Positions 3,008-45,246 of a DNA stretch of 64,000 bases are shown here, one piece after another. How positions within the stretch are numbered: position 1 is the stretch's first letter; each line of letters opens with the position of its first letter. The position numbers and the translations under genes are program-made. The notes below the pieces were generated by a model. It was not told the DNA's origin and made no database searches. It saw nothing but the letters and a program-made list of their open reading frames with translations. Origin of the DNA: a bacterium (GTDB lineage Bacteria > Sysuimicrobiota > Sysuimicrobiia > Sysuimicrobiales > Humicultoraceae); NCBI GenBank assembly GCA_041497675.1, contig JBGQGY010000003.1, positions 335 to 64,334 on the forward strand, read 5' to 3'.

Positions 3008-3192
3008 CGGGCAGTTCCCTCCGATATCGGAAATCGGGGATCGTGCCTGACCCGGACTCAGTCAACCCTCTCGCCGTGAACTTCCCAGGAACCTCTCTGA
3101 CGTTGGCTTGCCTCGGGCATAACCTTGTTGCGATTGTGTTCCAATCTTCATCCGGGCAAGTCAGAATATGCCCAGAAGATTGTGGGGCTAGT

Positions 3193-3275
3193 CACGAACG
3201 GGCAAACCCGGAGCGATTCGGGGGCGCAAAACTACGGGACCGGGGAATATACATACCGGTCCCTGTTTTTCTTGG
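3193..3275 (+). promoter_or_regulatory. c-di-GMP-I (GEMM) riboswitch-like element in the 5' leader of the GspE-family ATPase gene
   Basis: CACGAACGGGCAAACC-CGGA-GCGA-UUCGG-GGGCGCAAAACUACGGG then hairpin ACGGGACCGG-GGAAUAUACAUA-CCGGUCCC followed by UGUUUUUCUU. It has the GGCAAACC box, a GNRA-capped first hairpin and a GCGCAAA(G/A)C junction resembling the Vibrio Vc2 aptamer (GGCAAACC AUUC GAAA GAGU GGGACGCAAAGCC). The second hairpin plus U-tract could act as terminator. Confidence 0.6.
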
Positions 3276-3317
3276 GGCTGCTGCCACATGGCAAAACGGC
3301 ATGGGTGAGGGTACGCA

Positions 3318-5654
3318 TTGGATCGGTCCCCGGACGAAGGCGCCATCCAGACTCTGAAAGCTTCCGTTGGCCTGCCCGCGGAGAGCCTGACGCTCGAACG
3401 GGCTTTCCTTCATGCGGAGGCACGCCAGGCCATGCGGTCCGCACAATGGGAGACCGCGCGCGACGCGCTGCAGCGTCTAGCGGCGGCCGATCCAGAGGAA
3501 CCATGGGTCTGCTGGGACCTGGCGGCGGCGTGCCGGGCGCTCGAGGACCACGAAGGCGCAGCTCTCGCGTATCTGACCGCGGCCGACAAGCACCTGGCCC
3601 GCGGCGAGACCGACCAGGTCCTCCAAGCGTACCAGCAGGCCGCCGCGATCTCGCCAAATGATCCGCAGATTCAAGCCAAGCTGGCGGAACCAGCCCCACC
3701 TCCATCGCAGCCCTCGGCAAGCCGGCCGGCAAACGCTTCACCGCGACCGGCGCCGCCCGCCGCGACCACGTCGCCGGAGACCGGTGCGCGTGCCGTGCCG
3801 GAGCGCAGCGACGCTCCGGTATTGCCAACGCCTCCCGGGCCATCGAAGGCCGACAAGCGAGGGGCGGCGGCGCCCGATGCACCTCCCACACCACCCGCGC
3901 GCGAGCCCGTCGACCCAGCATCCCAGGCGGCGCGGGCACCGCGGCCGCGACTGGGCAGCAAAACCGAGACGCTGGGCCAGGTGCTCCAGCAACTGGGCAT
4001 CATCACCGCCCACCAACTCAACGAATCGCTCGAGATTCAGGCGCGCACCGGCGAGCGCATCGGGCAAATCCTGCGCGACATGGGCGTGATCAGCGACACC
4101 GACCTGGCGCGCGCCATGGCGCACCAGTGGGCCTACCCGTACCTCTCCCTGGCGGAGCGGCGGCCAGATACTGAGATCGTCAGGCTGATCCCGCACGCGC
4201 TGGCGATGCGGCACAAGTGCGTCGCCGTCGAGCGCGCCGGGGGCCGGCTGCTCGTCGCGATCAGTGATCCGCTGAACGTCATCGCCGTCGACGACGTCCG
4301 CCTCATCACCGGCATGGAAGTCGACCTCGCGGTCGCCACCGAAGAAGACATCACCACCGCGCTGGCGCGCGGCTATCAGCTGTCCGACACGACGATTGAG
4401 AAGGTCCTGCGCGAGTCCTTACCCGATTCTGCGGGGGATCTCGGCGATGAGGATGTCTCGATCGAGCAGCTGAAGGCGTTGGTTGAGGAAGCGCCTGTCG
4501 TCAAGCTCGTCAACCTCGTAGTGGATGAGGCGGTCAAGCAAGGCGCCAGCGATATCCACGTCGAGCCGCAGCGCAACGGCGTCTGGGTGCGGTTTCGCGT
4601 GGACGGGGTGCTGCGCGACGTGATGAACCCGCCTAAGCACCTGAAGTCGGCGCTCGTCTCGCGCATGAAGATCATGGCTGAGATGGACATCGCCGAGCGC
4701 CGTCGCCCCCAGGATGGGCGCATCCATCTGATCGCCGATGGCCGCAACATCGACCTGCGCGTCTCGACGCTCCCCACGATGTATGGCGAGAAAATCGTGA
4801 TGCGCATCCTGGATCAAGCCCAGACCATGATCGGGCTGACCCGGCTGGGCTTCCACAGTGATACGCTCCGACAGTGGGAGAGCTCGGTCAGCAAACCCCA
4901 CGGGATGGTGTTGGTCACCGGGCCGACCGGGAGCGGGAAGACGACGACCCTCTACGCCACGCTGAGCAAGCTCAACACGCCCGAACTCAATGTCGTGACG
5001 GTCGAGGACCCCGTCGAGTATCAGATCAGCCGTATCAACCAGGTCCAAGTGAACATTAAAGCCGGCATGACCTTTGCCACCGCGCTCCGGCACATCCTGC
5101 GCCAGGACCCAGACATCGTCATGGTCGGTGAGATCCGCGACAAAGACACGGCCGAGATCGCGGTGCAGGCCGCACTCACCGGCCACTTGGTCCTCTCAAC
5201 GCTCCACACCAACGACGCGGCGGGCGCGGTCACGCGGCTGGTCGACATGGGGGTTGAACCGTTCCTGATCAGCTCGTCGGTCATTGGGGTGCTGGCGCAG
5301 CGTCTCGCCCGGGCCATCTGCTCCCGTTGCAAGGTCGCCTACTCGCCGCCACCCGAAGCGCTCGGCCGTCTCGGTGCGGATGTGCGAATCGATTCCGATG
5401 TGACCTTCTATAGAGGCCAAGGCTGCGAGTCGTGCCGCGGCACCGGTTACCGCGGTCGGATCGGCATCTTCGAACTGCTGATCATCAGTGACGCCGTCCG
5501 CGACCTGGTTGTCCACAACGCCTCCTCCACCGAGATCAAGGCGCAGGCGATCCGTGAGGGCATGCGCACGCTGCGGGATGACGGCCTCGAGAAAGTCATG
5601 TCCGGCATCTCCACCATCGACGAGATCCTGCGGGTCGTGTACGTCCAGGACTGA
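3318..5654 (+). CDS. PilB/GspE-family ATPase with N-terminal TPR-like domain and Pro/Ala-rich linker (778 aa)
   Basis: T2SSE_N-like region (LGQVLQQLGIITAHQL...), Walker A GPTGSGKTT, Asp box, Walker B DPDIVMVGEIRD, His box LVLSTLHTND, tetracysteine CSRC...CESC. TTG start at 3318; ATG at 3432 is an alternative. N-terminal ~100 aa TPR-like, then low-complexity P/A-rich segment. Confidence 0.9.
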   Translation: MDRSPDEGAIQTLKASVGLPAESLTLERAFLHAEARQAMRSAQWETARDALQRLAAADPEEPWVCWDLAAACRALEDHEGAALAYLTAADKHLARGETDQVLQAYQQAAAISPNDPQIQAKLAEPAPPPSQPSASRPANASPRPAPPAATTSPETGARAVPERSDAPVLPTPPGPSKADKRGAAAPDAPPTPPAREPVDPASQAARAPRPRLGSKTETLGQVLQQLGIITAHQLNESLEIQARTGERIGQILRDMGVISDTDLARAMAHQWAYPYLSLAERRPDTEIVRLIPHALAMRHKCVAVERAGGRLLVAISDPLNVIAVDDVRLITGMEVDLAVATEEDITTALARGYQLSDTTIEKVLRESLPDSAGDLGDEDVSIEQLKALVEEAPVVKLVNLVVDEAVKQGASDIHVEPQRNGVWVRFRVDGVLRDVMNPPKHLKSALVSRMKIMAEMDIAERRRPQDGRIHLIADGRNIDLRVSTLPTMYGEKIVMRILDQAQTMIGLTRLGFHSDTLRQWESSVSKPHGMVLVTGPTGSGKTTTLYATLSKLNTPELNVVTVEDPVEYQISRINQVQVNIKAGMTFATALRHILRQDPDIVMVGEIRDKDTAEIAVQAALTGHLVLSTLHTNDAAGAVTRLVDMGVEPFLISSSVIGVLAQRLARAICSRCKVAYSPPPEALGRLGADVRIDSDVTFYRGQGCESCRGTGYRGRIGIFELLIISDAVRDLVVHNASSTEIKAQAIREGMRTLRDDGLEKVMSGISTIDEILRVVYVQD

Positions 5655-5698
5655 TCTCGACGGGTCGACGGGGCGGACGAGCCCGTGGTCAAAAGGAT

Positions 5699-5738
5699 GA
5701 GGAGCCGGCGCGGTCACGCCGGCTCCTCGGTGTTGTGT
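5699..5738. terminator. bidirectional intrinsic terminator between convergent genes
   Basis: GAGGAGCCGGCG-cggtca-CGCCGGCTCCTC 12-bp stem followed by GGTGTTGTGT on plus, with CCTTTT on the minus side. Confidence 0.6.
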
Positions 5739-5747
5739 AGAGCGCCG

Positions 5748-6104
5748 CTAGACGAGCGCGGCAGCCAGCTGGCTGTTACGCCGCATCTCCAACCGGATGC
5801 GACCGAGATTGGCCTGTTTGCCGCCGACGACCACCATCATGGCGTCGGGGCCCGCCGGGCCGACCGCGATCGGACCGTCATCGTACTCGAGCAACATGCT
5901 GCGCATCGCCCCCCGGCTCATTTCGCGTCCCATCGAATCCGCCGCGGCCATGCTGCTGGCCACGATGGCGCCAACGGCCTCCAGGTCGATGGCCTCTTCA
6001 CTCGTCATCCCCTCGACGACAAACCCATCCCGGCCAACGACCAGGACGGCGACGACCCCCTCGACTTTGGCCAGGTCGCTGATGACATCCTTCAGCTGCG
6101 ACAT
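5748..6104 (-). CDS. Roadblock/LC7 (MglB-like) domain protein
   Basis: MSQLKDVISDLAKVEGVVAVLVVGRDGFVVEG...AIDLEAVGAIVASSMAAADSMG...MMVVVGGKQANLGRIRLEMRR matches the Roadblock/LC7 pattern. Internal ATG at 6104 with upstream AGGAGGGGAA; the longer ORF 5748..6248 is an antisense-style extension. Confidence 0.8.
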   Translation of the reverse strand: MSQLKDVISDLAKVEGVVAVLVVGRDGFVVEGMTSEEAIDLEAVGAIVASSMAAADSMGREMSRGAMRSMLLEYDDGPIAVGPAGPDAMMVVVGGKQANLGRIRLEMRRNSQLAAALV

Positions 6105-6153
6105 CGTGCGTTCCCCTCCTACTCCAGAGTTCCGGCCCTCTAGCGTCCGGGAG

Positions 6154-6969
6154 CTACAGTGTTCCGTGCGACGGTACGCCCATGACACCCCGCAGTTTGG
6201 TGAGCGCTGAGGCCAGCACCCGCGAGACATGTTTCTGCGAGATGCCAATTCTCTTTGAGGCTTCGGTCTGGGTGAGATCGGTGTAGAACAGGTAGTAGAC
6301 GACCTTGCGCTGTAGCGAGTTCAGGGATTCCATCGCTTCGACCAGCATCACGCGATCTTCTATGGGTAACTGGAAGCTGATGTGGGATCGGTGCTTGATG
6401 CGCTCTCGGTCGACGCGCAGGTCGCCGCCCTCTTCTTCGGTCTCAAGGGAGATCGTCCGGAGGGCCTCACGGGTACGCAGCACCTCGAGCAGCCCTTCCT
6501 CTTCGATATTGAGCTCGGAGGCCAGCTCTTCCAGCCCGGGAAACCGCCCCTCTTCCGCAACGTATTTGCCGACGGTGTCCTCGATCTGGGTGTTGAGCTT
6601 CTGCAGCCAGCGCGGTTTCCGAATCGTGTCGCGCTGATCCCGCAGGTAATGGCGGATCTCGCCGCGGACCAGATAGCTCGCGTACGTCGCGAACTTCGCG
6701 CCCCGCGTCGGATCGAAGGCCGCGATGGCATTGAGCAACCCGATGTACCCCACCTGCACGAGATCGTCGGTCGGAACACCCGAGAACACAAATTCTGAGG
6801 CGATGCGCCGCACCAGCGGCGTGCACGCGTGGACGACTCGTTCTCGGATCGCTGGGTCGGGGCTCTCGACGTACTGGGCCATCAATACATCTTCGTTCTC
6901 GTGCTCGGTCACACGGGGTGTGATCTGCTCTTGTCGAACCGGTGCGCGTTGCGCGCTGCGGACTGCCAT
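6154..6969 (-). CDS. RNA polymerase sigma factor, sigma-70 family group 3 (SigB/SigF/FliA-like)
   Basis: Region 2 DLVQVGYIGLLNAIAAFDPTRGAKFATYASYLVRGEIRHYLRD; region 4 HTH LTQTEASKRIGISQKHVSRVLASALTKLR. GGAGG lies 6 nt upstream of the ATG at 6969. Confidence 0.85.
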   Translation of the reverse strand: MAVRSAQRAPVRQEQITPRVTEHENEDVLMAQYVESPDPAIRERVVHACTPLVRRIASEFVFSGVPTDDLVQVGYIGLLNAIAAFDPTRGAKFATYASYLVRGEIRHYLRDQRDTIRKPRWLQKLNTQIEDTVGKYVAEEGRFPGLEELASELNIEEEGLLEVLRTREALRTISLETEEEGGDLRVDRERIKHRSHISFQLPIEDRVMLVEAMESLNSLQRKVVYYLFYTDLTQTEASKRIGISQKHVSRVLASALTKLRGVMGVPSHGTL

Positions 6970-6980
6970 CGTGCCCCTCC

Positions 6981-7022
6981 GAGGAAAAAAGATAAGTCCT
7001 CTCGAGCTGCCCCAAGAGGACC
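6981..7022 (-). terminator. intrinsic terminator forming the expression platform of riboswitch A
   Basis: Minus-strand RNA: AGGUCCUCU-UGGGGCAGCUCG-AGAGGACU UAUCUUUUUUCC, immediately before RBS GGAGG and the sigma factor ATG. Confidence 0.6.
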
Positions 7023-7031
7023 TGATGTTCT

Positions 7032-7110
7032 CCCTTCGGCAGCCCGGCCAACCGTGACGGTCCCGGAGCTTTGCGCCCCCACCTTGCGATGGGTTTGCCC
7101 TTTCGAGGAT
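7032..7110 (-). promoter_or_regulatory. c-di-GMP-I (GEMM) riboswitch-like aptamer A, leader of the sigma factor/Roadblock operon
   Basis: Minus-strand RNA: UCGAAAGGGCAAACC-CAUC-GCAA-GGUGGGG-GCGCAAAGCUCCGGGACCGUCACGGUUGGCCGGGCUGCCGAAGGG. GGCAAACC box, GCAA GNRA-capped hairpin, GCGCAAAGC junction. About 85% identical to element B at 12046..12140. Confidence 0.7.
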
Positions 7111-7149
7111 CGCTATTCAGTTAGAAGAAGACCACAAACCCTTACTGAC

Positions 7150-7181
7150 CTTAGTTTACATCATTCTTAGTTTAGATCATT
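7150..7181. repeat. 16-bp tandem direct repeat (cttagttta[c/g]atcatt x2) in an AT-rich island upstream of riboswitch A
   Basis: Read directly: ccttagtttacatcatt / cttagtttagatcatt. About 45-60 nt upstream of the riboswitch 5' end, so likely in the promoter. Local GC falls well below the window average. Confidence 0.6.
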
Positions 7182-7257
7182 GAGAACATTTCTGCAAGCT
7201 CTGTGTCAGAAATTGTACCCACCCTCGGACCCGTTTAGACCTCCCTGACCGGTAATC

Positions 7258-8199
7258 TTACCGGGCCGCGGATGCCCCCGCCGCGGGACGGGATCGGCTG
7301 ACGTACTTGAACGCCAGTCGGTGTGAAACCAGTGCCTCCAGAATGCCCCCGACTTGGGCCGGCGTCAAGCCCGTTTCGGAGGCAATCTCGGCCAGGGTGT
7401 GCGCGCCGTCGAGGAGACGCAGAACCGTCCCGGTGACGCCGTTGCTCACGACCCCGGCGAGCTCCGCGGCGACGTCCGAAGGCAGATTCTCCGCGACACC
7501 CGGCGATAGCAGATACCGTGCCTCCCGGGCGAACCGGCCGAAAACAGCTTCCAGTTCCCGCGACGGCGCTGCGGGCGGTGGCGGCGCGACCTCAGGCTGC
7601 GCACCCGCCTCCTCGACCGCGGCGACCTTGATCGCCGGGACCTCGATCACCGGGACGTCAACCGGCGCAGCGTCGACGGGCGCAACGTCGGCGGGCGCAG
7701 CGTCGACCACCGCAATGGGTTCTGAGGCCGGCGTGACGACTGAGACTGTCTGCGCCTGCAGCGAGCCGGTGATGACGATGATCCATCCCCTGGCCTGCTT
7801 CATGACGGCGCCAGACGTCGCTGCCGACGCCGGCTCGATGACGGCGAGCGCTCCCCCATTGAGGTCCAGCACCGCTGGTTTGGGTCCGAGCACGAGCACT
7901 ACGGCGCTCGCTTGGTCAGACTGTAGACGGGCGATGTAGCGGTCGAGGTGGACGAAGTCAGTATGCAGCGCCGCGCCTGAAAATTCTAGTGACGCGATCC
8001 GCTCCACGACGTCCTTGCGCAGCCGTAACTGAGCGGATTCCGCGCGGGCCGGTGGACCATCGGCGAACACCGCATCCGGCGCGCCGACATGCCAGCCGCT
8101 GGGCCCAAAGACCGCCGCGCAGGGCGTCGATGCTTCGAAAATCGCCGCCACGCCTCCGAGCCAAGCGTAATGAGTAATCCTGGCAGTCGCGGCGGCCAC
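7258..8199 (-). CDS. hypothetical protein with C-terminal HTH-like segment and internal (APVDA)n low-complexity repeat
   Basis: 313-aa ORF with uniform codon use. C-terminal ...VLRLLDGAHTLAEIASETGLTPAQVGGILEALVSHRLAF resembles a winged-helix/HTH. Last gene of the riboswitch-B operon; start is 4 nt after the upstream stop. Confidence 0.55.
   Translation of the reverse strand: MAAATARITHYAWLGGVAAIFEASTPCAAVFGPSGWHVGAPDAVFADGPPARAESAQLRLRKDVVERIASLEFSGAALHTDFVHLDRYIARLQSDQASAVVLVLGPKPAVLDLNGGALAVIEPASAATSGAVMKQARGWIIVITGSLQAQTVSVVTPASEPIAVVDAAPADVAPVDAAPVDVPVIEVPAIKVAAVEEAGAQPEVAPPPPAAPSRELEAVFGRFAREARYLLSPGVAENLPSDVAAELAGVVSNGVTGTVLRLLDGAHTLAEIASETGLTPAQVGGILEALVSHRLAFKYVSRSRPAAGASAAR
7664..7708. 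repeat. 15-bp tandem repeat x3 (ggcgcagcgtcgacg) inside the CDS
   Basis: ggcgcagcgtcgacg / ggcgcaacgtcggcg / ggcgcagcgtcgacc, coding APVDAAPVDAAPVD on the minus strand. Confidence 0.7.
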
Positions 8200-8202
8200 G
8201 AC

Positions 8203-8979
8203 TCAGATGTCCTCCTGTACCGTCCGCTGCCAGAAACCACCCAGCGCGAGAAAGACGAAGCCCGCCACCCACAGCGCATTGATCGTGTGGACTTCCGAGT
8301 AGAGTTCGTACCAGCTGAGAAACGCGTAGCCCAGACTGGCGACCGCCAGACAGAGCGCCGAGGCGGCGACGGCCAGCCAGGTATATGCCGAGGTGCCGCC
8401 GCGAAACCCGACGGCGGGTAGCAACCCCGCGGGCACGAGAAAGACCGCGATGGTCGGATAGAAGACCGCCAGCACCTTCACCGTTGTCGGCGCCGGACTG
8501 GCCATGATCGGGCTCACGATGAACTCGAAGCCAAGCGCCCACCCCACGACACCGAGTCCCACCAGCGCGAGGCGGACCGGGCGATCGACCATTGGTGCAA
8601 CCAACCGGATCTCCAGACCGAGGGCGAGACCAAGCAGCAGGTAGAAGACGACGAAGAACCCGTCGGCGATCGACGGGTACGGCAGTGCCCGTCCCCCCCA
8701 CCATTGGTAGAACGCAAAGACCCCGCGGCCGGCCGCCCAGGCTAGCGCCGCCAGCCCCCCGATGGACCACACCGCGCGCTCGCGATCGCCCGACACGTAG
8801 GCGCGTCGAGCCGCGAGGCACCCGATACCGGCAAGGATCGGCGCAACGATCTGAACTGCCGAGCCCAGCACGTGTCGGGCCAGGCGGCCCTGGAGGCTGG
8901 TTTCTGCCGCACCGTACGCGTAGGCGGCGGCCAGGACAAGGCCGCCCATGACGATGAGCAGCACGCGAAAACGCTTCAT
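8203..8979 (-). CDS. integral membrane protein, ~7 predicted TM helices (258 aa), unknown function
   Basis: MKRFRVLLIVMGGLVLAAAYAY... followed by multiple hydrophobic stretches. ATG at 8979 overlaps the upstream stop (ATGA). The longer 353-aa ORF has an Arg-rich N-terminal extension that looks like antisense or out-of-frame readthrough. Confidence 0.65.
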   Translation of the reverse strand: MKRFRVLLIVMGGLVLAAAYAYGAAETSLQGRLARHVLGSAVQIVAPILAGIGCLAARRAYVSGDRERAVWSIGGLAALAWAAGRGVFAFYQWWGGRALPYPSIADGFFVVFYLLLGLALGLEIRLVAPMVDRPVRLALVGLGVVGWALGFEFIVSPIMASPAPTTVKVLAVFYPTIAVFLVPAGLLPAVGFRGGTSAYTWLAVAASALCLAVASLGYAFLSWYELYSEVHTINALWVAGFVFLALGGFWQRTVQEDI

Positions 8980-9830
8980 CGAGCCGCTCCGGAGTCGCCG
9001 GCACCTGCCGCGTCGCGTTCGGCTGCGGCAATCGCCCGGTCGACGAACGCACGACCGGCGACGGCGATGATCGGTTCGCACGCCGTCTCGACGATGACCC
9101 GCCACGACGCCTCGGAGATCGGAGGCGCATACACGCGGGTTCCGTCGACCCGGCCGCCATGCGGCGCGAGCGCGGCGGCGAGCGTCGATGTGAACCGCTG
9201 GGCGAGCCGCTGGCCGCGATGACGCGCTACCCGTTCGGCCACGCCTTCCATGGTGCGCGGCCACGGTCGGGTCGACGCCTCAACGGGGGCCACGGGTTCC
9301 GTCGCCACCACGCGCTCGCCGGCAGCAGTCGCTCGCGCTGGCGGCGCTTCGCTCACCGGGGCGACCGGCTCGACGACCGGCGGAGCGGTCACCACCTCAG
9401 CCACCTCCGCCGGCTCAACCGCTGGCATCGACTGCGACGTCACGAGGCTCTGCCCTGGGACTTTGAAGACCGTCGCCGGGGCTGCGGACGGTGGGCCCGC
9501 CGCCTGTCCGAAGGCGACGTCTGGCGGCGCGCCCACATACACGCTCAGCGTCGAACCGTTTGACGCCATCTCGCGGAAGAGGTCGTGCCCGCCGGCACCG
9601 GCCAGCACGGCCTCTCCGCCGTCAACGTCAAAGAACCAGGCGTCCTGCGCCTCGCCCTCGTGCACCCAGACCAGGCTCTCCATTTCGAGGTCGGCGAGGT
9701 AGATGCCGCCTTCAAACCCGCGGCCGATCAAATGCGCCAGCAGCCCGTCGATATCCACCGCATCGCCGGGGAAGTCGGTGACTAAGGCCGGTCCGGCCCG
9801 GAGCACTTCGAGTGCTTGACGCCGGTTCAC
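8976..9830 (-). CDS. hypothetical protein, DUF4388-like N-terminal motif (tentative), Pro/Ala/Val-rich middle
   Basis: GDAVDIDGLLAHLIGRGFEGGIYL resembles the DUF4388 G-x-x-x-F-x-L-x-D-L-L-Q-x-L...G-x-L signature as I recall it. Probable GTG start at 9830, with AGGAG 5 nt upstream and 8 nt after the TAXI gene stop. Confidence 0.5.
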   Translation of the reverse strand: MNRRQALEVLRAGPALVTDFPGDAVDIDGLLAHLIGRGFEGGIYLADLEMESLVWVHEGEAQDAWFFDVDGGEAVLAGAGGHDLFREMASNGSTLSVYVGAPPDVAFGQAAGPPSAAPATVFKVPGQSLVTSQSMPAVEPAEVAEVVTAPPVVEPVAPVSEAPPARATAAGERVVATEPVAPVEASTRPWPRTMEGVAERVARHRGQRLAQRFTSTLAAALAPHGGRVDGTRVYAPPISEASWRVIVETACEPIIAVAGRAFVDRAIAAAERDAAGAGDSGAAR

Positions 9831-9838
9831 GTGAGCTC

Positions 9839-10810
9839 CTACTTGATGCCTCGCTCCCTGTAGAAACGCAGAGCGCCGGCATGCATCGTAATTGGCATCC
9901 CCGAGCGTGACGTGTTGGTCGTAATGTCCTTGCCGCGCGCATGGGCGGCCTGCAATCGGTCGGTGTTGGTCCACAGCGCCGAGGTCAACGTGTAGATCAG
10001 GGCTTCCTCGATGTCCTGACGCGTCACCAGCATCGCCATCACCGCTGCGGTATCCACTGACTCGGTCTGGCCCTTGTAGGTGTTGGCCGGTACCGTCACG
10101 CGTGTGTAATAGGGGTACTGCTCGCGCAGCATCTCCACGACGTCTCTTGGGATCGCCAGGACCTTCAGGTCGCGGCTGGACGCGATATCCTGTACAGCCG
10201 CTGTCGGGAACCCCGCTGTAATGAACGCCGCGTCGATCACGCCATCCTTCAACTGATCGGCGGCCTCGGCGAAGTTCAGGAAGTCCGGCCGCGTGTTGTA
10301 ATAGCCGAGTTCAAACGCGCGGAGAATCTGACGCGCGTTGATCTCGGTGCCGCTGCCCGGCGCGCCGACGGCGATGCGCTTGCCCTTGAGATCGGCGATC
10401 GAATTGATGTTCTTGGACTTCAGCGTGACGACCTGAATCGTCTCCGGATACAACATCGCCATGCCTCGAAGATTCGCGATCGGCTGGGTCTTGTTGGCGA
10501 CGCGATCCATAAACATCTCGGTCCCGTGGAAGGCGTAGTAGGTGATATCGTTCTGGATGAACGCCACCGCCACGTCGCTCCGCTGTAGCAGGCGGATGTT
10601 GGCGACCGAGGCGCCGGACGTCTGCGCCGTCGCCTGGACGTTTGGCACCTTGCCGCTCCACACTTCCGCCAGCGCCGCGCCCAACGGGAAGTAGACACCC
10701 GCCGTGCCGCCCGTTGCAATGGCGACAAACGTGCGCTGTTGGGCCATGGCGGGCCAGACGGCTACGCTGAGCACCGCCAGTATGACGATTCCGAGTGTGA
10801 TCCGACGCAT
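9839..10810 (-). CDS. TAXI-family TRAP transporter solute-binding protein (orphan, no DctQM permease adjacent)
   Basis: Signal peptide MRRITLGIVILAVLSVAVWPAMA; VAIATGGTAGVYFPLGAALAEV matches the TAXI signature. Start codon choice among M1, M9 and M16 is uncertain. Confidence 0.8.
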   Translation of the reverse strand: MRRITLGIVILAVLSVAVWPAMAQQRTFVAIATGGTAGVYFPLGAALAEVWSGKVPNVQATAQTSGASVANIRLLQRSDVAVAFIQNDITYYAFHGTEMFMDRVANKTQPIANLRGMAMLYPETIQVVTLKSKNINSIADLKGKRIAVGAPGSGTEINARQILRAFELGYYNTRPDFLNFAEAADQLKDGVIDAAFITAGFPTAAVQDIASSRDLKVLAIPRDVVEMLREQYPYYTRVTVPANTYKGQTESVDTAAVMAMLVTRQDIEEALIYTLTSALWTNTDRLQAAHARGKDITTNTSRSGMPITMHAGALRFYRERGIK

Positions 10811-10858
10811 GTGCGCTCTCCTCCTCATCATCGTGTCGAACGGATGGACCCTCATACG

Positions 10859-11983
10859 CTATCGCTGGATAATCTCAAACTGTCCTTGGTGCACTCGGGC
10901 CACGGCTACCGGGCGGGACGGCACACCCCATCGATCAAGGGTGATCTGACCGGTCACACCGGGAAACTTCCGGAGCCCCTGCAGCGCGGTCTTGATCGCG
11001 ACGGGGCTTCTGTCACCACGGCGCATCGTGGACGCCAGCATCTTCACCGCATCGTAGGCCTGTGCCGCGAAATGGTCCGGCGTCTCGTTGAACTTCTTCC
11101 GATACTTGGCCCCGAACTCTTGGACGATCGGTAGCGGATCGCTGGCCACAAACGGCGCAGGCAAGAGCACATCCTCCGCGTAGATTTTGGCCCACGCCAC
11201 GAGATCGGTCGAATACAGCGCGTCGGATCCCACGATCGGCACCCGAACGCCGCGGCCTTTGAGCGCCGCCACGATCAACGCGCCCTCATCCGGGTACCCG
11301 GCCACAAAGACCGCGTCCGCCCCGTCGGCGAGCACGCCGGTCACGTGACGGGTGAAGTCGGTGTCCCCGTCGTGGTAGAGCCTCGTGCCGACGACCCGAC
11401 CACCCAACCCCTTGATCCGCTCGGCAAATGCGAGGGCGACCATGGTGCCGTACTCGTTGGCATCGTGGATGATGGCCAACCGGCGCGTATTCCGGGTACG
11501 CACAAGAAAATCCGCGAGGGTGCGCGCCTGAGCTTCAGCGGACAGCGACGTGCGGAAAAACGAGGACCCCGAGTAGGGAATCGTCCCGGTAGCGCCTGGG
11601 CTGACCAGGGGGATCCCCGCGCGCTCAGCCATCGGCGCGACGGCCAGCGCGGTCGCGTCCGTCACCGGTCCCACCACGGCGACGATCTTTTGCTTCACCA
11701 GATGCTCGAACTGCTTTGCGGCCTCATCGGCGGTGCCGCGATCGTCCTGCACCATCAGCGTGATCGACGCGCCGCCGACCCCACCCGAGGCGTTGATCTC
11801 TTCAGCGGCGAGCGTGGCACCCTGCACGACGGACTTGGCCGCGGCGGGCACGCCGCTATTGAGCGGCGCCAGGATGCCGATAATAACTGACTCCTGCGCC
11901 CGGAGCGCGGCGCTGGGACCGCAGGCGGAGGTCGCGAGCGCTGCGAAGATGATCGCCGCGGCCCCGAGTGTCATCGTTTTCAT
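10859..11983 (-). CDS. type 1 periplasmic binding protein (LivJ/branched-chain amino acid-like), lipoprotein; orphan SBP
   Basis: MKTMTLGAAAIIFAALATSAC (lipobox), then a PBP1 Leu/Ile/Val-binding-like fold (IVAVVGPVTDATALAVAPMAERAGIPLVSP...). First gene downstream of riboswitch B. Confidence 0.75.
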   Translation of the reverse strand: MKTMTLGAAAIIFAALATSACGPSAALRAQESVIIGILAPLNSGVPAAAKSVVQGATLAAEEINASGGVGGASITLMVQDDRGTADEAAKQFEHLVKQKIVAVVGPVTDATALAVAPMAERAGIPLVSPGATGTIPYSGSSFFRTSLSAEAQARTLADFLVRTRNTRRLAIIHDANEYGTMVALAFAERIKGLGGRVVGTRLYHDGDTDFTRHVTGVLADGADAVFVAGYPDEGALIVAALKGRGVRVPIVGSDALYSTDLVAWAKIYAEDVLLPAPFVASDPLPIVQEFGAKYRKKFNETPDHFAAQAYDAVKMLASTMRRGDRSPVAIKTALQGLRKFPGVTGQITLDRWGVPSRPVAVARVHQGQFEIIQR

Positions 11984-11997
11984 GTGTGTCACCGCCT

Positions 11998-12036
11998 GTG
12001 AACACAAAATGCCTTTCGGCCGCCTGCCGAAAGGCA
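11998..12036 (-). terminator. intrinsic terminator forming the expression platform of riboswitch B
   Basis: Minus-strand RNA: AUGCCUUUCGGC-AGGCG-GCCGAAAGGCAU UUUGUGUUC. Perfect 12-bp stem plus U-tract, 15 nt before the SBP ATG. Confidence 0.65.
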
Positions 12037-12045
12037 TACCACGCC

Positions 12046-12140
12046 TGCCCCTTCGGCAACCCGGCCGGCCGCGCGGTTGGACGTCCCGCGCGCCCCCGTG
12101 GCTTTGCGTCCCCACCTTGCGATGGGTTTGCCCGTTCGGA
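12046..12140 (-). promoter_or_regulatory. c-di-GMP-I (GEMM) riboswitch-like aptamer B, leader of the SBP/DUF4388/7TM operon
   Basis: Minus-strand RNA: CCGAACGGGCAAACC-CAUC-GCAA-GGUGGGG-ACGCAAAGCCACGGGGGCGCGCGGGACGUCCAACCGCGCGGCCGGCCGGGUUGCCGAAGGGG. It has the GGCAAACC box, a GNRA-capped hairpin and GGGACGCAAAGCC, which matches the Vc2 junction exactly. Confidence 0.75.
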
Positions 12141-12261
12141 GGCTCTATGCAGTTTGCGGTGCTACCTTTTCTCTACCCCGCCGCGGCTTCGCCTAGACCT
12201 CTGCCTACCCTCCAACAGATGTCCCGAGAGTTGCGGCAGGGTTCCTCCAAGAAGCCATACG

Positions 12262-13651: not shown

Positions 13652-14620
13652 ATGCACACCGCGTTGATCGAACGCATCCGCACACATCGCCGGATCCTGA
13701 CCAGCCGTTGGTCGAAGGCCCTGAAAGAGGCCCCCGGCGCGAACCCGTGGTGGCAAGACACTGAACGGACCGATCGACTCCTGTTCGCCGGCCTTGAAGC
13801 CCTGATCGAGGCCGTGAGCTCCGGCAACGATGAGTTGTTCGTCGCCTTCGCCTCGCGCCTCAGCCAGGAGGCCTTCGCGCTCCAGGTTCCACCCAATGTC
13901 GTCATCCGCGCCATCCTGACCGGAAAGGTCATTGTCACCGAGTTCCTGACCGAACCCGACTCCTCGCCTGGCCTCGACGTCGCCACCGTGCAGTCGCTCG
14001 ATCGGGTCGTCTCCGCCGGCATCCTCGAAGGGATCCGGCGGCACGAACGACAGCGCGAACGCCGGCTGCTCACCGCGCAAGAGCAGCTCGAGCAGCTGCG
14101 CGACCGCCTCCGCCGTCAGGTCGTTGTCGACCCGGCGACGGGTCTCTACAACGCCAACTACTACTCGATCGCCGTGCGCCGCGAAGTTCGCCGTAGCCAG
14201 CGGTTCGGCCGCGTCTTTTCGCTCGCCCTCGTCGCCCCCGACAAAGATGACGGGGTCCGCGACGCCTGGGGCGACGAAGGTCTGCGTGCCGTGTCGATCA
14301 CACTCGCCGACATCCTGACCCGCTGCACCCGGCAGGTCGATCTGCGGGCGGCGCTCGGCGGCGTCCGCTTCGGTCTGATCCTGCCTGAAACGCCGATGGA
14401 GGGCGCGTTCGTGCTCGCCGAGCGCATCCGCGTCGCGGTCGAACAGCAGGCGTTCACACTCCCCGATCACCCATCCCCCGTGACACAGACTGTCAGTATC
14501 GGGCTGGCGAGTTTCCCCCGCGATGCCGAAGATGACCGAGGGATGCTCTCCCGGCTCGAAGAGGCCCTGGCGCGCGCTCGCGGTGGCGGCAACACGACCG
14601 TCGCTGCCGCGTCGGCATAG
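13652..14620 (+). CDS. GGDEF-domain protein with degenerate active site (GGVRF) and intact RxxD I-site; probable c-di-GMP receptor
   Basis: DPATGLYNANYYSIAVRREV...RQVDLRAALGGVRFGLILPET. RQVD lies 5 aa before GG(V)(R)F. Internal ATG (MHTALIERIRT) chosen because the upstream part of the ORF overlaps the divergent Roadblock gene. Confidence 0.75.
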   Translation: MHTALIERIRTHRRILTSRWSKALKEAPGANPWWQDTERTDRLLFAGLEALIEAVSSGNDELFVAFASRLSQEAFALQVPPNVVIRAILTGKVIVTEFLTEPDSSPGLDVATVQSLDRVVSAGILEGIRRHERQRERRLLTAQEQLEQLRDRLRRQVVVDPATGLYNANYYSIAVRREVRRSQRFGRVFSLALVAPDKDDGVRDAWGDEGLRAVSITLADILTRCTRQVDLRAALGGVRFGLILPETPMEGAFVLAERIRVAVEQQAFTLPDHPSPVTQTVSIGLASFPRDAEDDRGMLSRLEEALARARGGGNTTVAAASA

Positions 14621-14641: not shown

Positions 14642-16264
14642 TTATCGCTCCCGCCACAGGCGTAGTTGCACTTCGAACGGCGGTTTTACCTGCAGCACCC
14701 TGAGAAACACGTCGACCAGTTCCGGATCCAGCGTCGTCCCGGCCAGCGCACGCAGTTCATCCATCGCTTCGGCGACGGTCCGGCCACGGCGGTACGGACG
14801 GTCGGATATCATCGCATCAAACGTCTCTGCCACGCGTATGATGCGGGCACCCAGCGGAATCGCGTCGCCCGCAAGCCCGTCCGGGTAGCCGCTGCCGTCG
14901 TACGCTTCTTGATGGTGCTTCACGTCGTCAACCAGCGGACGAAACGGCGCCATCTCGCGGAGAATGGCCGCGCCGCGTTCGGGGTGCTGGTTCATCGCCT
15001 TGCGCTCGTCATCGCTGAGCGCGGCGCGCTTGCGCAGCACGCCCTCCGGCGCGCTGATCTTCCCGATATCATGGAGGAGGCTCGCCCACTGGATGCGCTC
15101 AACCTCTCCAGGGGGCAGGCCGATCTCCGTCGCGACGGCCACCGCATTGGCGGCCACGCGCTGTGAGTGCCCCTGCGCGTAGGGATCCTTGGCCTCCAGC
15201 GCCGCAGCCAGGGTGTTCACGGCGCTCAGCAAGAACTCACGCGATTGACTGTGCATTTGCGCGTCATGCAATGGAGGCGACGCCATCTCGGCCAGGGTAT
15301 ACGTCGCGCCCAGATGCTCGTCCCTGAAGAGCCGGATCCCGCGCCGTGCCAAGTGCACCACGCCAAACGATCGCTCGGCCGCGCGCAGCGGCACGAGCAG
15401 CGCCGATCCCGTCGCATCGTCGCCAAATACGCTCACCCACCGTGCGTCCGTCGACGCGTCGACGACCAGTTGTGGCAGACCGGAGCGCATGGCCTCCTCG
15501 ACCACGGCCGCTGAGTCCAGCACCTCTCCACGCGCGCGGAGCCTGCCGGCGGCGTCGAGACCGGCTTCGATGACCAGCCGCTGCTCGATATCCAGCACGG
15601 CGACCAGTCCGTAGTCCGCGTCGGCCAGATGCAGCGACCGATCGAGGAGCCTGCGGGCGCGATCGGCCAACGGCTGCCCGGCCATGGCGGTCAAGGTCGC
15701 GTGGATCTGCGCGGACACGTGCACGCGCCGGTTGAGTTCCTCGGCGCCGCGCAGCGCCGATTGCATCGCTTCAGTACGACGCTGTTCCATGAACCCGACG
15801 AGCAGTCCGATCAGCATCAGCAGCGCGGCCCTGGGGAGGATCCCCGCGGCAGGTTGGGAGTGGAGCGTAATCGCGGCCGCGTACCCCAGGGCAGAGACCC
15901 AACCGCCGACGACTCCCGCCACCAGACCGCGCCCGGCCGTCCCCCAGATCAGCACCGGCACATAGAAGAAAAAGAAGAAGCTCGTCATCCCGCCGGTCTC
16001 GCCCACGAGCAAGGACACGATGAGTAGCTCGAGGATCGTGCCGACGTAGGAGGCGACGTGCGGCCCAGACTGGCTGGGCGCCAGCGCGCTCAGCAGCCCG
16101 GCTGGGAACAGGAGCAATAGGAGAAGCGCGGAGGTGAGGCTGGGGCTCGCACGGTCGGTCTGTGTCCCGATCAACAGGACCGAAAACCCAAACAGTACCG
16201 CCAACCCGCGGAGATAGAGCGCCCACCATTCGAAGGGGGCCTTCTGGGCCGCCGATTTCATCAC
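14642..16264 (-). CDS. membrane-anchored GAF/HD-GYP c-di-GMP phosphodiesterase
   Basis: N-terminal multi-TM region, a GAF-like middle, HD (LHDIGK) and HHEAYDGSGYP (HD-GYP signature). Confidence 0.8.
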   Translation of the reverse strand: MMKSAAQKAPFEWWALYLRGLAVLFGFSVLLIGTQTDRASPSLTSALLLLLLFPAGLLSALAPSQSGPHVASYVGTILELLIVSLLVGETGGMTSFFFFFYVPVLIWGTAGRGLVAGVVGGWVSALGYAAAITLHSQPAAGILPRAALLMLIGLLVGFMEQRRTEAMQSALRGAEELNRRVHVSAQIHATLTAMAGQPLADRARRLLDRSLHLADADYGLVAVLDIEQRLVIEAGLDAAGRLRARGEVLDSAAVVEEAMRSGLPQLVVDASTDARWVSVFGDDATGSALLVPLRAAERSFGVVHLARRGIRLFRDEHLGATYTLAEMASPPLHDAQMHSQSREFLLSAVNTLAAALEAKDPYAQGHSQRVAANAVAVATEIGLPPGEVERIQWASLLHDIGKISAPEGVLRKRAALSDDERKAMNQHPERGAAILREMAPFRPLVDDVKHHQEAYDGSGYPDGLAGDAIPLGARIIRVAETFDAMISDRPYRRGRTVAEAMDELRALAGTTLDPELVDVFLRVLQVKPPFEVQLRLWRER

Positions 16265-35536: not shown

Positions 35537-35615
35537 TGGGGTGACCGACGGGATTCGAACCCGCGACCTCCTGGGCCACAGCCAGGCGCTCTCACCAAGC
35601 TGAGCTACGGCCACC
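35537..35615 (-). tRNA. tRNA-His (GTG) with encoded G-1 and CCA
   Basis: Hand-folded: G-1 + GTGGCCG acceptor, D-arm GCTC...GAGC, anticodon stem CCTGG/CCAGG with loop CTGTGGC (anticodon GTG), T-arm GCGGG TTCGAAT CCCGT, discriminator C, CCA. Confidence 0.85.
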
Positions 35616-45170: not shown

Positions 45171-45246
45171 TGGCGGGCCCGGAGGGAATCGAACCCCCGA
45201 CCAGCCGGTTAGAAGCCGGCGGCTCTATCCGCTGAGCTACGGGCCC
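45171..45246 (-). tRNA. tRNA-Arg (TCT)
   Basis: Hand-folded: GGGCCCG acceptor, GCTCAGCGGATAGAGC D-arm, anticodon stem GCCGG/CCGGC with loop CTTCTAA (anticodon TCT), T-arm GGGGG TTCGATT CCCTC, discriminator G, CCA encoded. Confidence 0.85.

Follow-up and report, generated by a model that had tools for sequence, protein, structure and literature searches.

Two intact c-di-GMP-I riboswitches and the relic of a third in a locus of uncultured Armatimonadota rich in c-di-GMP components

The 64-kb stretch of contig JBGQGY010000003.1 analysed here (64,000 nt, called the window in the following) carries, within 9 kb, three elements with the core sequence of the c-di-GMP (cyclic diguanosine monophosphate) riboswitch class c-di-GMP-I, also known as GEMM. 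We found that two of them, A and B, are intact, ordinary members of this class. They are located in the leaders of a sigma factor-Roadblock operon and of an operon for solute-binding proteins, a protein without family match and a helix-turn-helix (HTH) protein, respectively. The third element, C, precedes a gene for a PilB-type ATPase (PilB1). A preliminary description of the region had counted three riboswitches; A and B are indeed intact, while C is a deletion relic without nucleotide C92, the 3’ strand of P1 and the original terminator stem. As a whole, the data are best explained by A and B acting as intact terminator-type OFF switches within a shared sigma circuit and by C being a relic, and we consider this explanation probable.

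The motif GGCAAACC-N8-20-CGCAAA has three exact matches in the window, whereas 0.01 would be expected according to shuffled sequences. They are located at 3201-3230 on the plus strand (C), 7070-7099 on the minus strand (A) and 12103-12132 on the minus strand (B), and thus the shared core is present where it had been proposed. Likewise, the first hairpin (P2) was found to be capped by a GNRA tetraloop (GCAA or GCGA) in each element, and the assignment to the GEMM class held. As previously suggested, all three elements are situated in 5’ leaders and share the strand of the genes that follow them. Comparison of the whole window with Rfam 15 at the curated gathering thresholds reported two riboswitches, A (63.5 bits) and B (57.5 bits). 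C was not reported, since its best score of 36.2 bits, obtained in a permissive search with RF03168 (threshold 65.9), falls short; its scores with RF01051 and RF03167 were even lower. The E-value of C was 2.3e-6 in a search of 301 nt and 4.8e-4 over the whole window. The permissive Rfam search of the window revealed no further cyclic-dinucleotide-like elements. The three aptamer regions are:

7034..7108, minus strand: aptamer of riboswitch A, best match RF03167 (c-di-GMP-I-GGC) with 63.5 bits (threshold 59), in the leader of the sigma-Roadblock operon
12052..12142, minus strand: aptamer of riboswitch B, RF01051 (c-di-GMP-I) with 57.5 bits (threshold 35), in the leader of the operon for binding proteins, the unknown protein and the HTH protein
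3192..3274, plus strand: element C, truncated c-di-GMP-I aptamer relic with 36.2 bits, below every threshold

A and B represent a known riboswitch class which is detected by standard Rfam annotation, and not a new kind of system. In addition, c-di-GMP regulons in which several riboswitches govern motility, pili and a sigma factor have been described in detail, C. difficile being one example (PMC6200980), so that the proposal of a probably undescribed module went too far.

Orthologous loci were recovered with the sigma-factor protein encoded downstream of A. They originate from Armatimonadota metagenome-assembled genomes (MAGs), several of which are named Candidatus Fervidifonticultor, and the sigma factors show 71-94% identity; in locus L088 (GCA_041493755.1) the sigma gene is identical to that of the window. 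The conserved gene order is YceG, HAD, HD-GYP, GGDEF, SLT-TPR, riboswitch B, Peripla_BP_6, NMT1_3, orf332, membrane protein, HTH protein, riboswitch A, sigma factor, Roadblock, PilB1 (convergent), element C, DnaB-like, MerR and a second PilB (PilB2). Riboswitch A was detected in every locus that covers its position (61-72 bits) and riboswitch B in most orthologous loci (41-60 bits), and in at least 10 related loci the orthologues of A or B score above the Rfam gathering thresholds. Gene order and the switches A and B are thus conserved across the Candidatus Fervidifonticultor-like Armatimonadota MAGs.

The aptamers of the window locus and its relatives support the class assignment at the level of structure and of ligand contacts. 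On the GEMM-I structure, 96.4% of the cells in P2 and P3 are paired and 7 of the 20 pairs show compensatory changes on both sides, while in controls with slid partner columns the pairing amounted to just 24-50%. In an alignment of 27 intact aptamers from the window locus and its relatives, the P2 loops are GCAA, GCGA, GUGA or GUAA. The nucleotides G20, A47 and C92 (Vc2 numbering), which contact the ligand (PMC5888326, PMC3764141), are invariant, and their contexts are GG-C(AAAC), CGC-AAA and UG-CC (in RNA, UGCC); A and B conform to them. These three nucleotides suggest that A and B sense c-di-GMP. In the riboswitch for c-AMP-GMP (c-GAMP), GEMM-Ib, an A replaces the G at position 20. Specificity for c-GAMP was considered and rejected, because G20 is invariant. 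The aptamer of A ends 65 nt upstream of the start codon of the sigma gene, and that of B 69 nt upstream of the start codon of the binding-protein gene.

The terminator platforms that had been proposed for two of the elements were recovered downstream of A and B by terminator scan and folding, and in both cases an alternative antiterminator is predicted:

6985..7023, minus strand: intrinsic terminator of A (hairpin 7023-6994), 13-bp stem followed by AUCUUUUUU
7006..7043, minus strand: predicted antiterminator of A, in which GCUGCCGAAGGG (7043-7032) pairs with CUCUUGGGGCAGC (7018-7006)
12001..12037, minus strand: intrinsic terminator of B (hairpin 12037-12009), 12-bp stem followed by UUUUGUGUU
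12026..12057, minus strand: predicted antiterminator of B, in which GCCGAAGGGGCA (P1 3’ strand, 12057-12046) pairs with UGCCUUUCGGC (terminator 5’ strand, 12036-12026)

In A, GCUGCCGAAGGG comprises the end of P3, C92 and the 3’ strand of P1, and CUCUUGGGGCAGC comprises the 5’ strand and the loop of the terminator. For the nascent transcript of A up to the terminator loop, the antiterminator is the minimum free energy structure (-42.6 kcal/mol, versus -33.6 kcal/mol with P1 enforced). Folding of B revealed competing pairings equivalent to those of A, and the 5’ strand of P1, CCGAACGGGCA, is also able to pair with UGCCUUUCGGC. The antiterminator complementarity is kept in the orthologues of A, of B and of the intact form of C, including a conserved terminator-loop sequence, GGGGCAGC. 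In the mechanism that we propose, as long as c-di-GMP is low, the aptamer 3’ end (end of P3, C92 and P1 3’ strand) would pair with the 5’ strand of the terminator, and the antiterminator so formed would allow transcription of operon A or B. Binding of c-di-GMP would lock P1, P2 and P3, the terminator hairpin would form and transcription would stop. Since the ligand-stabilised P1 would sequester the antiterminator strand, c-di-GMP should cause termination, and A and B are predicted to be OFF switches acting by transcription termination. Class I switches of this layout are OFF by experiment in C. difficile (PMC6200980).

Of the aptamer, element C retains the 5’ strand of P1, P2 with its GNRA loop, J2/3 (CGCAAAA) and the distal hairpin of P3, and the 3’ third is missing: relative to locus L082, approximately 65 nt were deleted, comprising the 3’ side of the P3 base, C92, the 3’ strand of P1 and the original terminator stem. 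At the orthologous site before PilB1, intact aptamers with a terminator are present in L002, L007, L008, L082, L083, L084 and L085 (49-57 bits, above the RF01051 threshold). The P3 loop GGAAUAUACAUA of L082 is identical to that of C in the window, and both share an unusual ACU 5’ strand at the P3 base, which in L082 is paired with AGU. The truncated form was also found in L088 and in L081 (PilB 91% identical), and in the latter GGCAAACC is in addition changed to GGCCAACC. In L004 an inversion splits the element: the upstream promoter block has remained next to the DnaB-like gene, and PilB has taken along the terminator and a 3’ half that is degenerate, while in L006 and L009 the promoter block is present and the aptamer is absent at this position. 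Thus, C appears to have started out as a third riboswitch built like A and B, in which a deletion of approximately 65 nt would have destroyed ligand sensing in this lineage, and among the relatives it was lost or broken repeatedly. Two features of the C leader are noteworthy:

3236..3273, plus strand: residual hairpin in C, GGGACCGG-12 nt-CCGGUCCC followed by UGUUUUUCUU (-18.2 kcal/mol, z = -2.2)
3154..3193, plus strand: conserved promoter/operator-like block GGGCAAGTCAGAATATGCCCAGAAGATTG..G..CTAGTC upstream of C, with 24 invariant columns in 7 loci

As a consequence of the deletion, the distal P3 hairpin GGGACCGG...CCGGUCCC is joined directly to the U-tract. The terminator scan missed this hairpin, because its loop exceeds 8 nt. 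Judged by its predicted fold, it is with UGUUUUUCUU a probable ligand-independent terminator or constitutive attenuator. The block upstream of C contains the inverted repeat GGGCA-N10-TGCCC, is kept in the relatives without riboswitch at this site (L004, L006, L009) and differs from the promoter motif that precedes A and B. Probably it represents a promoter with an operator for some regulator. The L004 rearrangement can be traced at 11180-11340 and 13720-13900, where PilB1 is inverted and the breakpoint apparently lies inside riboswitch C. We also considered GGGGCUGCUGCC (3276-3287) as the missing 3’ strand of C and rejected it, since it is homologous to the leader downstream of the terminator in L082 and not to the aptamer.

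Upstream of A and B, a second common feature was detected, which suggests a link between the two operons:

7216..7241, minus strand: SigB-type promoter-like motif GGTCTAA-N14-GGGTA upstream of A, core invariant in the orthologues
12174..12199, minus strand: SigB-type promoter-like motif GGTCTAG-N14-GGGTA, approximately 32 nt upstream of B
7169..7197, minus strand: conserved sigma-70-like promoter candidate TTGCAG-N17-TAAACT upstream of A
6154..6969, minus strand: SigB/SigF/SigG-family-like (group 3) sigma factor with Pfam Sigma70_r2, r3 and r4 domains and a ribosome-binding site before the ATG at 6969, first gene after A

GGTCTAR-N14-GGGTA is found at just two sites of the window, one before A and one before B, while 0.09 matches would be expected. 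The SigB-type motif is conserved in the orthologues; every orthologous locus carries it before A, and across 91 loci it is nearly confined to the positions of A and B. It fits the rule GTTTAA-N12-14-GGG[AT]A[AT] for SigB promoters, in which GGG and the A at the fifth position are nearly invariant (PMC8346170): the GGG is invariant here too, and position 5 is an A. In the alignment of the orthologues, the conserved block upstream of A reads CTTGCA..AATGTTCT..GGTCTA; TTGCAG and TAAACT are putative -35 and -10 elements. Among the families compared, the sigma factor was most similar to NCBIfam TIGR02980 (180 bits, cutoff 234; FliA/WhiG, 108 bits), and by this similarity we call it SigB/F-like and not a member of the family. 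A SigB/F-like sigma factor thus probably transcribes its own operon and operon B. The riboswitch-gated sigma factor would drive both, and c-di-GMP would act at two places to shut down a small sigma circuit that regulates itself. The group-3 factor SigF of Synechocystis is reported to autoregulate and to drive pilA1 (PMC2532724).

Two further observations were made on these leaders. The A leader contains at 7150-7185 (minus strand) an AT-rich stretch, unusual in a genome with approximately 68% GC, with a tandem duplication of TAAACTAAG; the duplication is absent from all orthologues, in which the single copy overlaps the candidate -10 element. In L004, a SigB-type motif (GTCTAR-N13-15-GGGNA) is also found at 661-686 between the HAD and HD-GYP genes, and this hints that the HD-GYP phosphodiesterase may share the sigma regulon in some relatives.

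Several other explanations have to be weighed. A, B and C could stem from a dispersed repeat or from a mobile element and have no regulatory role, which the preliminary description had named as the finding that would speak against its proposal. A and B do have a long identical stretch in common, GGGCAAACCCATCGCAAGGTGGGG. However, there are just three copies in 64 kb, each is kept at a fixed orthologous position before the same gene in genomes whose proteins are 40-95% identical, and the compensatory changes support an RNA structure, so that this explanation can practically be dismissed. A different question is raised by the best match of A, which in the window and in all orthologues (61-72 bits) is the variant family RF03167, above its threshold: A could belong to the c-di-GMP-I-GGC class and may then sense a ligand other than c-di-GMP. 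We read the variant names as the nucleotides at Vc2 positions 20, 47 and 92, as deduced from three Rfam consensus sequences. The parent RF01051 has GG-CAAAC, CGC-A-AA and UG-C-C, RF03167 has CGC-G-AA (ACGC-G-AAGCC), i.e. a G at position 47, and RF03168 has U-GCAAAC and UG-U-C. When A was aligned to RF03167, an A was found opposite the diagnostic G47 of the model. A and all 12 orthologues read CGC-A-AA, and A47 is invariant in all aligned sequences of A, B and C. Further, the numbers of clan overlaps left out in our scans equal those of the RF03167 matches in every scan (1, 11 and 4), which indicates that the A-type sites also pass the RF01051 threshold. By its defining feature A is therefore not a GGC variant, although it fits the RF03167 model better overall, and we regard sensing of another ligand by A as very unlikely. 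At one point the difference between GGGGGCGC and GGGGACGC was taken for position 47. This was rejected, because the numbering in PMC3764141 places A47 at the first A of CGC-AAA, according to which no element described here is a GGC variant.

The polarity of A and B and the status of C leave somewhat more room for alternatives. Class I riboswitches can act as ON switches in some species, and if A and B were ON or translational switches, c-di-GMP would induce the sigma operon and operon B. The foldings of full-length B with and without the antiterminator, which differ by approximately 2 kcal/mol, would be compatible with this. On the other hand, the strand that competes with the terminator is the 3’ strand of the aptamer P1, so that a ligand-stabilised P1 would free the terminator, and in both leaders the ribosome-binding sites follow the U-tracts and stay accessible in the folds predicted here. 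We therefore hold ON or translational control to be improbable. Alternatively, all three elements could be functional c-di-GMP riboswitches, with C as a compact form whose P3 hairpin doubles as a terminator, the ligand promoting termination. The retained P1 5’ strand, P2, J2/3 and P3-like hairpin followed by a U-tract would fit such a form, the clan-level similarity of C is significant (E=4.8e-4), and the downstream PilB is under purifying selection. Yet C is devoid of C92, which pairs with one of the ligand guanines, and of the P1 3’ strand. The intact orthologues, among them L082 with the identical P3 loop, expose the deletion, the score is below every family threshold, L081 shows the additional change in the core, and in L004, L006 and L009 this riboswitch has been broken or lost independently. 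A functional C is accordingly quite unlikely.

The explanation which we favour, two OFF switches in a common sigma circuit and one relic, also has to face observations that weigh against it. The predicted OFF polarity is based on thermodynamic folding, which ignores co-transcriptional kinetics, and for full-length B the folds with terminator and antiterminator are close (-73.0 versus -71.2 kcal/mol). At the side of B, the motif in L004 and L007 reads GGACTAG instead of GGTCTAG. The score of the sigma factor is below the NCBIfam SigBFG cutoff (180 versus 234 bits), and no anti-sigma or STAS partner is encoded in the neighbourhood of its gene; both make the assignment of the motif to this sigma factor circumstantial. 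Finally, the conservation of relic C between the window and L081 is similar to that of the rest of the intergenic region, and a residual ligand-independent function of C is inseparable from recent common ancestry.

The genes under and around the switches are the following:

5748..6104, minus strand: Roadblock/LC7 (MglB-like) protein (Pfam Robl_LC7, E=7.7e-15; weak MglB match), downstream of and co-directional with the sigma gene
10859..11983, minus strand: Peripla_BP_6 solute-binding lipoprotein (Pfam, E=2e-61), first gene after B, true start ATG 11983
9839..10855, minus strand: NMT1_3 (TAXI-type) solute-binding protein (Pfam, E=1.5e-85)
8976..9830, minus strand: orf332, lineage-restricted protein without Pfam match, 28 homologues
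8203..8979, minus strand: multi-pass membrane protein of 258 aa according to its translation, conserved part starting with MKRFRVLL
7258..8199, minus strand: protein with a weak C-terminal winged HTH (sub-threshold match to Pfam HTH_IclR, E=1.4e-3), encoded at the end of operon B and kept in the orthologues
3318..5654, plus strand: PilB-type ATPase PilB1 with an N-terminal TPR region and an MshEN domain of the c-di-GMP-binding type (Pfam T2SSE, E=1e-144; MshEN, E=3e-20), downstream of relic C
13652..14620, plus strand: GGDEF protein, degenerate (GGVRF), whose translation still shows an intact RxxD I-site (Pfam GGDEF, E=6e-18)
14642..16264, minus strand: membrane-GAF-HD-GYP phosphodiesterase (Pfam HD_5, E=1.4e-41; GAF_2), HD and GYP motifs present in the translation

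Most gene assignments of the preliminary description agree with these data. The PilB/GspE-type ATPase and the sigma and Roadblock proteins were recovered with Pfam and NCBIfam, the binding protein turned out to be two, and the multi-pass membrane protein, the HTH protein (weak, C-terminal), the degenerate GGDEF protein and the HD-GYP protein (GAF-HD-GYP) were confirmed. In L088 the Roadblock gene is called as a gene of 118 aa. The label DUF4388 for 8976-9830 was not supported: orf332 has no Pfam match even at E<=10, and a Pfam domain was found in none of the 28 homologues recovered from 5.8 billion clusters. Its AlphaFold2 model is confident (pLDDT 77) and comprises two domains, an alpha/beta one at the N-terminus and a helical one at the C-terminus, connected by a Pro/Ala-rich linker. 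A Foldseek comparison of the model with the PDB revealed no fold match at E<=0.001, BLASTP did not detect any resemblance of orf332 to the HTH protein, and for the 258-aa membrane protein no family match was found in Pfam. In L009 (7820-8030), B lies directly before the orf332 homologue, and the operon has neither of the solute-binding genes nor the gene for the membrane protein. This arrangement suggests that orf332 and the HTH protein are the core cargo of switch B.

PilB1 reached 72 bits with the MshEN model PF05157 (cutoff 23) and 53 bits with NF053729 c-di-GMP_motif (cutoff 38), and its ratio of nonsynonymous to synonymous substitutions (dN/dS) of 0.15 at dS 0.14, calculated for the window and L081, indicates purifying selection. 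Together with the I-site GGDEF protein and the HD-GYP protein, the MshEN-type PilB makes the locus rich in c-di-GMP components, as the preliminary description had stated. Its reading of the locus as a compact c-di-GMP regulon is reasonable and partly supported, with two intact switches and one relic. The segment 5698-5729 between the convergent PilB1 and Roadblock genes forms a GC-rich hairpin of 13 perfect base pairs, is flanked by a U-tract on either strand and looks like a bidirectional terminator. On the minus strand at 1-1433, downstream of the DnaB-like gene, there are a MerR-family HTH gene (1152-1433) and a small DUF6812-type open reading frame. The second PilB paralogue starts at 908, runs off the window and has the canonical MshEN motif RLGEVLVEAGLITQAQLEQALQ; in relatives, a PilT-like gene follows it. 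Two tRNA genes are present at 35540-35614 and 45174-45246, both on the minus strand (Rfam, 65.8 and 67 bits).

Compared with the type examples of RF01051 (Vc2 of V. cholerae tfoY and Cd1 of C. difficile flgB), A and B show the same P1, P2 with GNRA loop, P3, AAA in J2/3 and G20/A47/C92, as well as the same terminator-based platform and, as predicted here, OFF polarity, while the host is an uncultured thermophilic Armatimonadota lineage. Cd1 controls the flgB operon, which contains sigD, and switch A likewise places a sigma factor under predicted c-di-GMP control. In contrast to Cd1, the sigma gene is the first one behind the switch, it belongs with SigB/F and not with FliA/SigD, and there are no flagellar genes here. 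From the GGC variant RF03167, with which A and its orthologues score best, all elements differ by the lack of the A47-to-G change and are parental according to their binding-site identity. In C. difficile, 16 c-di-GMP riboswitches were described, of which those of class I are OFF switches and some copies are non-functional (PMC6200980). Several c-di-GMP riboswitches per genome, surface or motility functions and non-functional copies are thus common to both systems, whereas here three elements are clustered in 9 kb beside GGDEF and HD-GYP genes and two of them share a SigB-type motif.

Similar to SigB promoters and to SigF of Synechocystis (PMC2532724), a SigB/F-family-like sigma factor is found together with a -10 motif of the GGG..A type before its own gene. 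It is encoded beside type IV pilus ATPase genes. Different from these systems are the riboswitch control behind the predicted promoter and the absence of RsbW/RsbV-type partner-switching genes from the neighbourhood. PilB1 resembles the c-di-GMP receptors of the MshE/PilB type in its tandem 24-residue MshEN motifs with a 5-residue spacer, by which it is predicted to bind c-di-GMP, and it differs from them by a Thr in place of the leading Arg in the first motif and by the additional N-terminal TPR region.

How riboswitches work is not seen differently after the analysis of A, B and C. The decay of C is a clean natural case of riboswitch loss, since among sister genomes this switch occurs intact or truncated, has been split by an inversion or has disappeared, and the case of A cautions that best-match Rfam variant labels (such as “GGC”) need to be checked at the defining nucleotide. 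Two points are of some note: a SigB/F-like sigma factor is predicted to be controlled directly by a riboswitch, with a matching promoter motif before two operons, and the switch linked to PilB was lost repeatedly.

The locus gives an initial insight into c-di-GMP signalling in a lineage of uncultured hot-spring Armatimonadota. In this lineage, the mRNAs of an alternative sigma factor and of a conserved uncharacterised operon appear to be direct targets of c-di-GMP, and the genes of operon B thereby gain a context as low-c-di-GMP genes, which are probably linked to motility or surface sensing. As a speculation, to which we assign only a minor but real chance, the locus may constitute a self-contained bistable circuit, in which an autoregulated SigB/F-type sigma factor without partner switching would be checked only by the OFF riboswitch in its own leader, the second switch would gate the main target operon and the third one, in relatives, the MshEN-PilB motor. 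If this were true, master control over a programme of surface behaviour would, in thermophilic Armatimonadota, lie with a riboswitch in place of an anti-sigma factor.

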